Positions 44,007-47,196 of a stretch of 64,000 nucleotides of DNA are shown here, in pieces. How positions within the stretch are numbered: the first letter of the stretch is position 1; each line of letters starts with the position of its first letter. The notes beneath the pieces were generated by a model that saw nothing but the letters and a program-made list of their open reading frames with translations, had not been told where the DNA came from and searched no databases. The DNA comes from Alphaproteobacteria bacterium (lineage in GTDB: Bacteria > Pseudomonadota > Alphaproteobacteria > RF32 > CAG-239): NCBI GenBank assembly GCA_045632645.1, contig JAZQXC010000014.1, positions 104,637-168,636 on the forward strand. The letters run 5' to 3'. The translations under genes were made by a program, and so were the position numbers.

Positions 44007-45299
44007 ATGTCTGATGATTTGCTAGACGAGTTTATTTCAGAGGAAAATACACAAACAACAAGTGAACAATCACAAAATCAAGCATCACAGGAATCAATTA
44101 AATCTATAGAAGAAACACTAGAAGATGAATTTACACGTTTGCTAAAAGAATTTATCACAGAGAGCGAACAAAAAGAAGAAGAGAGAAAAGCAAAATATGC
44201 TCCTCGCCCTGATACTTCCAAACCAGTACCAACGCCACAAAAAAATATAGACAGTTTTTTTAATCAAAGTGAAGTATCATCTAGTGTTAATTTAGATGCT
44301 TTTATTGGTAAAGAAGATTCTGCAAATAGTGGGTTAGATAGCTTTTTAATGCCCGAAGAACCTAAAACAACAGGTTTAGATAGCTTTTTAACGCCTGAAG
44401 AACCTAAAGCAACAGGTTTAGATAGCTTTTTGACGCCTGAAGAACCTAAAGCAACAGGTTTAGATAGCTTTTTAACACCCGAAGAACCTAAAGCAACAGG
44501 TTTAGATGGTTTTATAACTCCCCAAGCAGATAGTGCTCATCAAAAAGATGGAAAAGGGATGTTTAAAGGTGTTCCTCCTGTTCATACCGAAAAGTTAAGT
44601 GAAACACAAATAAAATTAAAACAAGAAGAATTAGAGCTTTCTCGCGCAATAACAAACTTTCAAGATGGAATAAAAGCTATTTCGAAAAAGAAAAATTTAC
44701 AAGCGCCTGAAACGGATTATAACGAAAATATGTTATATCCAAACTACAAACCAAGTGTTGGTAAAAAAATTGCTAATCATTTACTAGCATGTTGGGATAT
44801 TCTCAATAAGTATGATCCTGAAAACATGCAAAGATTGCCCAAAAATGCAAACGACGAGCAGTTTTTGGTTTTTGCAGAATCATTAAAAGATACAGATATG
44901 CAGCTCGTTATAATATCTTATGTTGAAATTCTTATCAATTTAGAAATTTGTGAAGTGAAATATGAACAAAAGAAAGAAATTATAACCAAAAACCGTATTA
45001 AAAAAGAGCTTTATGAAGAGTATATGCGCCTTCAAGAAAGAAAAAATTTATTTATAAAAAAATTAAAAGAACAAAACTTCCCCATAGATGTTGATAAACT
45101 TATGAATAACTATTTTAGGGCAGCTCAAAAAGACACCAAAGGTGCTTTTAATGCCTTAACAAAAAATCCGGCAATGTTTGCCCCAATACAGTTTGAAAAA
45201 ATAAAACCACGCTTCTTTGGTTTGATTAAAGTAACTCCTGAGGATGGCATAAAAATGAATCAAAAAATAGGCGAATTTATTAAAAAATTGAAAGTTTAA
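44007..45299 (+). CDS. hypothetical acidic protein with five tandem 14-aa repeats (TGLDSFLTPEEPKA)
   Basis: 430 aa; acidic N-terminus; 5 copies of a 42-nt/14-aa unit; no recognisable catalytic motif; no signal peptide. Confidence 0.5.
   Translation: MSDDLLDEFISEENTQTTSEQSQNQASQESIKSIEETLEDEFTRLLKEFITESEQKEEERKAKYAPRPDTSKPVPTPQKNIDSFFNQSEVSSSVNLDAFIGKEDSANSGLDSFLMPEEPKTTGLDSFLTPEEPKATGLDSFLTPEEPKATGLDSFLTPEEPKATGLDGFITPQADSAHQKDGKGMFKGVPPVHTEKLSETQIKLKQEELELSRAITNFQDGIKAISKKKNLQAPETDYNENMLYPNYKPSVGKKIANHLLACWDILNKYDPENMQRLPKNANDEQFLVFAESLKDTDMQLVIISYVEILINLEICEVKYEQKKEIITKNRIKKELYEEYMRLQERKNLFIKKLKEQNFPIDVDKLMNNYFRAAQKDTKGAFNALTKNPAMFAPIQFEKIKPRFFGLIKVTPEDGIKMNQKIGEFIKKLKV
44328..44520 (+). 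repeat. tandem 42-nt repeat x5 (coding)
   Basis: unit ACAGGTTTAGATAGCTTTTTAACGCCTGAAGAACCTAAAGCA repeated near-perfectly. Confidence 0.85.
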
Positions 45300-45366
45300 A
45301 TTTATATAGACAAATGCTCGATTCTATGCTAAAATAAACAATATTAAAAGGAATACGGAGGCTAAA

Positions 45367-47196
45367 ATGACAGAAAACGAAAATAATACACCATTTGAAG
45401 ATGACGTAAACCAAGGTCGAAGTGACTTAGAGGGTTATATAAATGGTGATAGAGATATTGAGGATATAATTGGTGGGAACGGAACTCCAACCCCTCAAGG
45501 AAATCCAACTCCTCAAGGTGCTCCAACCCCTCAAGGAAATCCAACTCCTCAAGGTGCTCCAACTCCTCAAGGAAATCCAACCCCTCAAGGAAATCCAACT
45601 CCTCAAGGTACTCCAACTCCTCAAGGTACTCCAACTCCTCAAGGTGCTCCAACTCCTCAAGGTACTCGAACTCCTCAAGATGCTCCAACTCCTGGTATTT
45701 CAAGTGCTTATATTAAGAATGCTCCAAGAGATATTTATGGCAATGTGAAATTGCCTGAAAACAATTCAAAACACGAAGATACAGGCGCCCAAAAAAGAGA
45801 GAATAAACCACTCGATTTAAAAGGTGAAACTCCTATGGAAGTTTCTTTTGATATTTTTAAGAAGATACTTAATGGTGCCGTAGATTGGACAGTTGATAAA
45901 ATTCTAGATGCATTTGATTATCTCGTACTTCCTAAAGGGGGAAAACCCAATAAAAATATAACAAATATGTATGCTCTAGGCTTAGCTTCAAGAAATGCAA
46001 ATGATGAAGAGGGAATAAAAAAGGGTGCAGTATCTTTAGCTGGATATAAAGAATTTTTAGATAATCTAGAAAACGATAAAAACTCTCGTCCCGTAAAGTG
46101 GAATATCCTAAAAACAGAGCCTTCGTTTTTTAAAGAAATAAGTGAGATTTATAAAAAAGATCCATCTGCTCGTACAAAAGATGAAAATATAATGATGCAT
46201 CTTCTTCAAAATGCACCAGTAGAAGAGTTTATTGAGCAAGAAAGGCATATAAGAGGGTTTGCTATCGATGCCGCTACATGTGATCTAGGTATTCAAAAAG
46301 AAAGAGGCGATATCCTTTGTGAAGGTAGCGGTGATGTAATGAAGGCTTTAGAAAAAGCTGTAAAAGATAACGATAGATCAACAGCGCTTTTGTGGGTTCA
46401 ATATTTAACACAAAACATTGCTCAAGATGGTGACTTACTTAATGGAGCAAAGCTAGATTTAATGCATTTAAAAGATGCACTAGACAGAGGCGCTTCAACA
46501 AAAGAAACATCTAAACTATTTGAAAATCTGGTTAAAACACAAAATGATTTAAAAGAAAACCCAGATATGTGGACGGAGAGGCTCCATAGACGCTCCAAAG
46601 AATATCAAGATAAAATAAGAAATAGAATTATTGGTATAAAAACCCAAGATAAACATACAGTGTCAAAAGAATTCACAGATGAGCTACATGAATTAGGAGC
46701 GATGTTTGGTCAACACACATCACTAACACCAGATCAAAAAAAGGCTGAAACAAGCAGACTTATTACAGAGATGACAGCACATCTTGATGATACAAAACCT
46801 GGGCATCAAGCATTAAGGCAAAAACTAACAGAATTAGGAGTAGCTATAAGTGGTATAGATGTTACAGCACAAGGCGCAGAGGCGATAATAAATAATGTAG
46901 CTAACGGATTTATTAAAGAAATTGACGTAATTCATAAAGAAAATGACCCTAAAGAAATAGATACTAATGCTTTTCTAACAGAATTAGTAAAATCATGTGT
47001 GAAAGCAAAAGAGACAAGAGATATTTGTGCCGGAAAATTAGGCGTTATTCATAAAACAGATAAAATTAAAGCAATGAATGAGGCTCTTACGGAAATGAGA
47101 GGCGTTATTGAGGGAACACAATCATCACCACAACCTCAAAACACAAGAAATGCAGATACATTTATTTATGATATTATAAACGCACAAACAAGGTAG
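45367..47196 (+). CDS. hypothetical protein with N-terminal (PTPQGx)n hexapeptide repeat array and ~480-aa alpha-helical C-terminal domain
   Basis: 609 aa; about 11 PTPQG[N/A/T] units encoded by an 18-nt repeat; no signal peptide; no known domain. Confidence 0.5.
   Translation: MTENENNTPFEDDVNQGRSDLEGYINGDRDIEDIIGGNGTPTPQGNPTPQGAPTPQGNPTPQGAPTPQGNPTPQGNPTPQGTPTPQGTPTPQGAPTPQGTRTPQDAPTPGISSAYIKNAPRDIYGNVKLPENNSKHEDTGAQKRENKPLDLKGETPMEVSFDIFKKILNGAVDWTVDKILDAFDYLVLPKGGKPNKNITNMYALGLASRNANDEEGIKKGAVSLAGYKEFLDNLENDKNSRPVKWNILKTEPSFFKEISEIYKKDPSARTKDENIMMHLLQNAPVEEFIEQERHIRGFAIDAATCDLGIQKERGDILCEGSGDVMKALEKAVKDNDRSTALLWVQYLTQNIAQDGDLLNGAKLDLMHLKDALDRGASTKETSKLFENLVKTQNDLKENPDMWTERLHRRSKEYQDKIRNRIIGIKTQDKHTVSKEFTDELHELGAMFGQHTSLTPDQKKAETSRLITEMTAHLDDTKPGHQALRQKLTELGVAISGIDVTAQGAEAIINNVANGFIKEIDVIHKENDPKEIDTNAFLTELVKSCVKAKETRDICAGKLGVIHKTDKIKAMNEALTEMRGVIEGTQSSPQPQNTRNADTFIYDIINAQTR
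45481..45696 (+). repeat. tandem 18-nt repeat (~12 copies, coding for PTPQGx)
   Basis: CCAACTCCTCAAGGTGCT-type units; produces spurious long ORFs in other frames and on the opposite strand. Confidence 0.85.

Follow-up and report, generated by a model that had tools for sequence, protein, structure and literature searches.

We analysed a stretch of 64,000 nucleotides, called the window below, from an alphaproteobacterium of the RF32 lineage (contig JAZQXC010000014.1 of assembly GCA_045632645.1); all positions are those of the whole stretch. The window contains a block of six genes, named A to F in operon order, which includes the gene of a type IV coupling protein (T4CP) and which forms an operon conserved among uncultured gut Alphaproteobacteria, in 51 species or more. 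The first two genes, open reading frames (ORFs) A and B, encode proteins with tandem repeats, and A belongs, as judged from its distant relatives, to an unnamed family associated with type IV secretion systems (T4SS). Based on genomic context and conservation, we tentatively favour a reading in which A may be a machinery-associated scaffold or adaptor on the T4CP, with B as its variable partner or cargo. A previous sequence-only reading of this stretch had instead taken both proteins for secreted effectors or surface proteins of an intracellular bacterium.

A conserved six-gene operon containing a coupling protein

The six genes of the block are the following:
44007 to 45299, + strand: ORF A, 430 residues; acidic disordered N-terminal half and basic helical C-terminal domain; member of an unnamed family associated with T4SS
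45367 to 47196, + strand: ORF B, 609 residues; disordered N-terminus and a body rich in helical bundles; fast-evolving, operon position kept
47204 to 47695, + strand: gene C, 163 residues, 2 transmembrane (TM) segments
47754 to 49052, + strand: gene D, 432 residues, 2 TM segments, C-terminal NERD-like domain
49062 to 51278, + strand: VirD4/TraG-type T4CP, 738 residues, 2 TM segments
51241 to 52032, + strand: gene F, 263 residues, polytopic membrane protein; last gene of the block, overlapping the end of the T4CP gene

The coordinates and lengths given for A and B in the sequence-only reading were exact. That reading had also placed both genes immediately 5' of the T4CP block; the T4CP is real and the linkage is conserved, but A and B open the order A-B-C-D-T4CP-F, and C and D separate B from the T4CP. 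Intergenic gaps in the block are short or the genes overlap. It stands among housekeeping genes, with an RND efflux system, an RpoH-like sigma factor and RluD on the upstream side and LigA, IF3 and a PHP-domain protein on the downstream side.

We scanned species-representative genomes and obtained 51 loci in species-level metagenome-assembled genomes (MAGs), all uncultured and from the gut of humans, ruminants, mice or rabbits. Wherever a locus was long enough, the order was rpoH-rluD, A, a slot for B, C, D, T4CP and F, before ligA, with A present in one copy per operon in all 51 species. Protein sizes range from 309 to 440 residues for A, 459 to 893 for B, 160 to 179 for C (163 in 33 of the 43 tabulated loci), 417 to 512 for D, 735 to 760 for the T4CP and 240 to 281 for F. 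Given this constant order between rluD/rpoH and ligA, the block is a vertically inherited chromosomal operon, and neither mobile nor a strain-specific island. A second subclade (clade 2, loci L042 to L057) keeps the six genes and lacks the LDxF array of A, the GxSxAY motif of B and the acidic-Phe motif of D, all three of which are present in clade 1. This joint absence hints that the features of A, B and D work together.

We discarded a mobile element because of the vertical inheritance and because neither a relaxase, an oriT-like feature nor an integrase was found in the block. A defence system was also rejected: A, B, C, D and F had no match in PADLOC, where the T4CP gave only a marginal mad8 match, and the synteny is housekeeping-like. 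Scans of A to F against Pfam, NCBIfam, PHROG and PADLOC returned zero families for A, B, C and F. As already noted from the letters alone, neither A nor B has a signal peptide or a known enzymatic motif, and no TM-like segment was detected in either. Promoter and terminator scans gave signals no better than shuffled sequence. The module could not be assigned to any of the named adaptor, effector, adhesin and defence families tested.

Regarding the T4CP, its match to PF02534 has an E-value of 3e-57, and both its Walker A (GTGKT) and its Walker B (DE) motifs are invariant. Its tail (tail region 51200 to 51278, + strand) is acidic and conserved (..AEEExxFEEDEA), with a net charge of -9 over the last 25 residues and a conserved Phe six residues before the end, and is reminiscent of the tails with which other T4CPs bind partners. 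An acidic-Phe peptide is present in this tail and also in D (FNFDDDDFDLDFDF), whose motif is HALFNFDDDDFDLDFDLD, with HALFNFDDDDFDLDFDF as the form conserved in clade 1. The C-terminal domain of D gave weak matches to NERD (nuclease-related domain) in 20 of 37 orthologs (best E-value 8.9e-4), all below the Pfam gathering score. It is unusual to find a nuclease-like protein anchored in the membrane and encoded directly upstream of a T4CP. The N-termini of C and of D (for D, 47754 to 48050, + strand) share a paralogous 2-TM module (phmmer E-value 7e-4), and in loci L005 and L008 the paralogs of D likewise match C.

Repeats, domains and rates of change in A and B

The features of A are the following:
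44016 to 44042, + strand: N-terminal motif copy DLLDEFISE, residues 4 to 12; L6, D7 and F9 at least 90% conserved in the family alignment
44118 to 44168, + strand: conserved helix motif LEDEFTRLLKEFITESE, residues 38 to 54; family consensus LEDEFAKLLNDFI
44289 to 44540, + strand: array of six [NG]-L-D-x-F-[LI]-x units with a period of 14 residues or 42 nucleotides, the central four near-identical
44601 to 45296, + strand: C-terminal helical domain, residues 199 to 430, isoelectric point (pI) 9.3

Tandem Repeats Finder (TRF) detected the array of A with a 42-nucleotide period and 4.7 copies (44331 to 44526). At the protein level there are four near-identical GLDSFL[MT]PEEPK[TA]T units, which differ from one another at 1 to 6 of 42 nucleotides, and two degenerate units at the edges, NLDAFIGKEDSANS and GLDGFITPQADSAH. 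The 42-nucleotide tandem repeat described previously is therefore real, but its five near-perfect units become four plus two degenerate ones. We searched the six-frame translation of the window for the motif, written GLDSFLTPEEPKA for the array, and obtained 4 matches, all within A, against a mean of 0.14 in 50 mononucleotide shuffles.

The motif is shared by the family. Among 61 aligned members, 58 carry 2 to 8 copies of [GS]-L-D-[SGDA]-F-[VIL]-[TS] in the N-terminal disordered region, with near-invariant L, D and F and unconserved spacers of mostly 11 to 25 residues; Pro is the commonest residue after the motif (71 of 249 instances). Single conserved copies of this pattern are also found at the very N-terminus (L6, D7, F9) and within the helix LEDEFAKLLNDFI, which is kept in clade 2 and in more distant relatives. 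To judge from this conservation, the motif is under selection. At the nucleotide level, units within one array are up to 93 to 98% identical, while the best identity between species is 71 to 74%; in comparisons across species, identity is 68 to 75% in the motif half of the unit and 44 to 54% in the spacer half. Since the identity within arrays lies above that between species, the comparison indicates concerted evolution, with homogenisation or expansion apparently ongoing within species. The recent expansion proposed in the sequence-only reading fits the homogenised array, but not the motif, which is old and family-wide.

An AlphaFold 2 (AF2) model of A, built on the alignment of 61 sequences, predicts a helix at residues 26 to 63, disorder over residues 63 to 195 (the repeat region, non-helical) and a confident helical domain, with a predicted local distance difference test (pLDDT) score above 90 over residues 200 to 340. 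The two parts differ in charge: A had been called an acidic protein, which holds for the N-terminal half (pI 4.3) but not for the basic C-terminal domain (pI 9.3). This domain ends in a lysine-rich tail (...IGEFIKKLKV), in which G422, K426 and K429 are invariant, and the last 25 residues have a net charge of +3. As candidates for the repeat we discarded the paxillin-type LD motif (LDxLLxxL, an amphipathic helix), whose consensus differs and whose helicity is at odds with a repeat region predicted to be non-helical, and, for the peptide GLDSFLT, the FtsZ C-terminal peptide, the beta-clamp-binding motif and the ParB N-terminal peptide, whose consensuses do not fit. Sequence profile searches of the PDB with A, B, D and the T4CP, and phmmer searches of the PDB sequences with D and the T4CP, found no specific match.

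We measured the identity of the window proteins to two relatives, L003 and L001, given here in that order:
RpoH: 96% / 89%
T4CP: 92% / 81%
LigA: 91% / 79%
A, C-terminal domain: 91% / 77%
D: 82% / 64%
F: 81% / 60%
C: 80% / 47%
A, N-terminal half: 47% / 30%
B: 40% / 23%

The C-terminal domain of A is as conserved as LigA and the T4CP, which implies a housekeeping-level constraint on it. B is the fastest-evolving gene of the neighbourhood, and the mean column identity of its orthologs is 17%.

A has more than 390 homologs, and nearly all of the named ones are annotated as 'hypothetical protein [Alphaproteobacteria bacterium]'; a few are filed in other bins, such as Ruminococcus flavefaciens and Acetobacter sp. 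A profile of A found only 132 relatives among 1.84 billion representative proteins. The distant relatives share the last 90 to 130 residues or so (FPxD..KL..NYF...TNPAxFxPI...FFGL...N.KIG.FLKKLKV), and this region is always C-terminal, behind unrelated disordered N-termini. One of them, P0177 (343 residues, locus L005), is encoded three genes upstream of a 780-residue T4CP that is 57% identical to that of the window; D-like genes separate the two, and upstream there is a divergent TrbL/VirB6 gene. Three short paralogs (P0194, P0260 and P0185, 211 to 230 residues) are divergently transcribed from 3 to 5 tandem polytopic VirB6/TrbL-like paralogs, and a VirB11-like ATPase lies near one of these pairs of paralog and array. 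Because its distant relatives stand upstream of another T4CP or beside VirB6/TrbL arrays, the C-terminal domain of A defines an unnamed family that is T4SS-associated. P0156 (555 residues) adjoins rluD/rpoH in a more distant alphaproteobacterium. All family members looked up are unnamed or hypothetical, with no named Rickettsiales protein among them; no homolog has an assigned function, hence none with a defined housekeeping function was found.

Some observations on these loci can be added. In L005, L061 and L063, the A paralogs (211 to 343 residues) adjoin arrays of 3 to 5 VirB6/TrbL-like proteins of 450 to 935 residues, accompanied by a conserved helix-turn-helix protein of about 330 residues; these look like rvh-type T4SS islets (rvh, vir homolog of the Rickettsiales). 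No tandem VirB6/TrbL array was found in the window itself. In P0117, an N-terminal DUF4366 (PF14283) is fused to the C-terminal domain of A on a 2-kb contig, which may be a genuine fusion or a chimeric assembly.

The features of B are the following:
45484 to 45693, + strand: array (x-P-T-P-Q-G)n, ten xPTPQG units and then two degenerate ones; lineage-specific
45694 to 45711, + strand: GISSAY motif, residues 110 to 115, the best-conserved landmark among the B proteins of clade 1; at least 90% conservation of A114 and Y115
45964 to 47121, + strand: helical domain, residues 200 to 585, AF2 pLDDT mostly 70 to 95

Both parts of the earlier description of B were borne out, as TRF found its repeat with an 18-nucleotide period and 11.7 copies (about 11 PTPQG hexapeptides had been counted), and AF2 predicts the long helical domain behind a disordered N-terminal repeat region. 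The array is not conserved even in the sister species, where TPTPTP runs take its place, and across species, among orthologs collected by their position in the 51 loci, each B N-terminus has its own repeat type (KDNEEQSPQEG x3, QNNSQETPDV x3, DEGPTPQR, TPPTPP and others). Clade-1 B proteins keep the G-x-S-x-A-Y motif, the helical body and the C-terminus, with an R within the last two residues in 30 of 32 orthologs and a net-positive tail in nearly all of them; the tail of the window B ends in R and has a net charge of 0. A second search for homologs of B, made with a profile, added no members; the probable cause is that the index was flooded by low-complexity words.

In clade 2, the proteins of the B slot have 495 to 893 residues, mostly about 660 to 690, and N-termini that look unrelated. 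The antisense ORFs at 45362 to 45703 and 45427 to 45678 (both - strand), with ELEHLEE... and STLRSW... repeats, are mirror products of the 18-nucleotide repeat of B and not genes. A collagen-like or LPXTG adhesin (Scl2, Lcl) was rejected for B, given scores of 13.8 to 17.1 bits against cut-offs of 325 to 500, a 6-residue period with one Gly per unit in place of G-X-Y, and no signal peptide or anchor; its weak matches to collagen-like adhesins and tail fibres are compositional.

Between close strains, both arrays differ by whole units, as the sequence-only reading had anticipated. In L004, which is about 99% identical, A lacks exactly one 42-nucleotide unit (14 residues) and B lacks 180 nucleotides, that is ten units or 60 residues, which leaves 2 of 12. 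Two assemblies of a second species differ by exactly one 15-residue unit in A and by 12 residues inside the repeat of B. The copy number of A thus appears to vary between strains. The traceable comparison assemblies consist of short-read contigs (k141-type contigs and MAG scaffolds), so the unit counts are provisional until long-read data, while the existence of the arrays is unaffected.

Possible roles of A and B

In the reading that we favour, the basic C-terminal domain and lysine-rich tail of A would anchor it, by cytoplasmic docking, to the inner-membrane machinery (the T4CP, D or VirB6-like proteins), and its acidic disordered N-terminal half would display several copies of the short amphipathic peptide [GS]-L-D-x-F-[VIL]-[TS], perhaps a degenerate copy of the conserved helix ...LL(N/K)(D/E)FI(T/S). 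The motif copies would bind a partner multivalently, and we propose that copy number could in this way tune avidity or reach. B would be the rapidly diverging partner or cargo of this adaptor, keeping its helical body and an Arg-terminated, positive C-terminus while its disordered N-terminal spacer drifts, with slippage or unequal recombination giving rise to new tandem repeats, of which PTPQG would be this lineage's version. A is genetically linked to the T4CP in every locus long enough of the 51 species, and in the distant L005 as well.

Among known systems, the layout of the module would most resemble the icmR-icmQ-dotM-dotL region of Legionella, while phylogenetically it would belong with the rvh-like type IVA systems. 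The Dot/Icm coupling complex of Legionella is encoded as icmR-icmQ-icmP(dotM)-icmO(dotL), with IcmS, IcmW and LvgA as adaptors. In both systems, the genes directly upstream of that of the T4CP encode small soluble proteins and a membrane protein made up of N-terminal TM helices and a cytoplasmic part; the two also share a conserved soluble gene beside a hypervariable neighbour that keeps its position (compare icmR and the FIR genes), and acidic peptides as recognition elements, putative ones here. They differ in that the T4CP here fits the VirD4/TraG family PF02534 and related loci have VirB6/TrbL arrays (type IVA or rvh-like), and in that the conserved gene precedes the variable one, the reverse of the order in Legionella. 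We did not find sequence or fold homology of A or B to solved DotM, IcmS/IcmW, LvgA, IcmQ/IcmR, TraM or VirE1.

Regarding the rvh systems, their hallmark is the combination of tandem VirB6 arrays and scattered islets (PMC2653234), and basal, possibly extracellular rickettsiae also have rvh (PMC11077975). The present system is likewise alphaproteobacterial, with T4SS genes in scattered chromosomal islets and 3 to 5 VirB6/TrbL paralogs beside A-family paralogs. Unlike in Rickettsia, where virD4 lies within the virB8-B11 islet (PMC2653234), the T4CP gene here is in an operon of its own with five uncharacterised genes. A literature search combining RF32 or Alphaproteobacteria with T4SS returned no result.

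Several points weigh against A as adaptor and B as partner or cargo. The domains of A and B have no sequence or structural relative among solved structures, known T4CP adaptors included, and for this reason the case for an adaptor comes from context and conservation. Among the 30 larger window ORFs scanned outside the block, no T4SS gene (VirB2-B11) was found. The features of A, B and D that vary together between the clades represent one phylogenetic split, and a translocated substrate would be just as likely to have a positively charged C-terminus.

Precisely such substrates are at the centre of the strongest alternative, which we consider unlikely overall: both A and B would be T4SS-translocated effectors or surface proteins, and their repeats would be short linear motif arrays or spacers acting on a host or target cell. 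VirB/D4 substrates carry a C-terminal, unstructured, net-positive (Arg/Lys-rich) translocation signal, and effectors are normally patchy in distribution and fast-evolving. A and B are soluble, lack a signal peptide and are encoded beside a T4CP; the invariant Lys-rich tail of A (net +3), the Arg-ended and nearly always net-positive tails of the B orthologs, and the pace of change of B, which is that of host-interacting proteins, would all suit this role, although tails of this kind are not specific to a translocation signal. Tandem acidic repeats are also known in T4SS and T1SS (type I secretion system) effectors of the Anaplasmataceae (TRP proteins and, for example, AteA, PMC10653876), which resemble A in being acidic and disordered, with near-identical repeats of strain-variable copy number, and in coming from alphaproteobacteria that bear T4SS genes. 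On the other hand, A shows no homology to these effectors; its non-repeat domain is under housekeeping-level constraint, each operon of the 51 species has a single copy of it, and its paralogs are tied to VirB6 arrays and hence to machinery genes. The lineage comes from gut MAGs only, with no documented intracellular lifestyle, and all identifiable relatives are gut MAGs, none of them from a known intracellular bacterium, which lends no support to the intracellular origin suggested in the sequence-only reading. The constraint on A and its universal presence disfavour an effector role for this protein, an accessory effector being hard to reconcile with a fixed operon member whose C-terminal domain shows the constraint seen in LigA or the T4CP. 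For B, an effector role is plausible.

One could also argue that the operon is a DNA-handling module, for conjugation-like transfer or for DNA release or uptake, with A and B as DNA-processing or relaxosome-like accessories, a possibility that we regard as improbable. It would account for the membrane-anchored NERD-like domain of D, seen in 20 of 37 orthologs although always under the gathering score, and for the basic C-terminal domain of A; besides, VirD4/TraG T4CPs (PF02534) are ancestrally DNA-transfer ATPases. The acidic tail of the T4CP, with its Phe near the C-terminus, resembles that of F-plasmid TraD, which is bound by TraM, and as in TraM-TraD there is a helical oligomer-type protein encoded nearby. 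Nevertheless, the AF2 models of A and B contain neither a ribbon-helix-helix nor any other recognisable DNA-binding fold, and the block is chromosomal and vertically inherited, with no relaxase, oriT-like feature or integrase.

A neutral explanation, in which the repeats would be slippage-prone low-complexity linkers with no binding role, drifting in copy number and sequence, seems to us very unlikely as a general account. It agrees with the N-terminal region of B, which differs in sequence, length and repeat type per species, with the whole-unit insertions and deletions between conspecific strains in both genes and with the predicted disorder of both repeat regions. Yet what it covers is the PTPQG array of B, which the adaptor-and-partner reading already treats in this way, and it misfits A, where the L-D-x-F-[VIL] core is near-invariant in 58 of 61 members while the spacers diverge and where the motif also exists in single conserved copies at the N-terminus and in the helix. 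Finally, it is hardly credible that assembly errors produced the arrays, or at any rate their copy numbers: short-read contigs such as those traced here can collapse repeats, and the 12-to-2 difference of B in L004 is large, but the arrays are in frame and only 196 to 210 nucleotides long, their units carry distinguishing synonymous differences, and several species, assembled independently, have orthologous arrays with an identical period.

A bolder version of the adaptor-and-partner reading, which we offer as a long shot, is that the block represents a kind of coupling-protein complex not recognised before, which would serve an rvh-like T4SS in gut Alphaproteobacteria with an extracellular life. 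A network of acidic-Phe short linear motifs (the LDxF array of A, FNFDDDDFDLDFDF of D and the ..FEEDEA tail of the T4CP) would compete for one shared basic helical receptor, or form a bridge to it, this receptor being either the C-terminal domain of A or B. Copy number would then tune recruitment, possibly with condensate-like clustering at the secretion site, as an independent invention of the role of DotL-DotM-IcmSW.

Surroundings of the block and its meaning for the lineage

Outside the block, the 30 scanned ORFs include RadA, Mla, BatA-D, CtpA, iPGM, LpxC, RecN, Tgt and DnaJ. An ORF with a zeta-toxin domain (56837 to 57730, + strand; PF06414, 3e-46) lies among housekeeping genes, and two ORFs of 472 and 462 residues (57971 to 59389 and 61691 to 63079, both + strand) have no Pfam family; an ORF of 462 residues likewise stands downstream of infC in the related locus L003. 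A bacterial class A RNase P RNA is present at 26192 to 26563 (+ strand, 265 bits), and no tRNA genes were found across the whole 64 kb.

This clade of gut Alphaproteobacteria is widespread in humans and livestock and uncultured. A universally conserved T4CP operon with five uncharacterised partners gives it a concrete candidate for a secretion module, and the C-terminal domain of A would add a new family to the small set of T4CP-associated factors. The array of A seems to be a case of concerted evolution acting on a functional short linear motif, and is a candidate for tunable recruitment or for strain typing. The main result is thus an unnamed, T4SS-linked family with a possibly tunable motif array, in a widespread and uncultured gut lineage. 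Should B prove to be cargo, these organisms would have their first candidate substrate.

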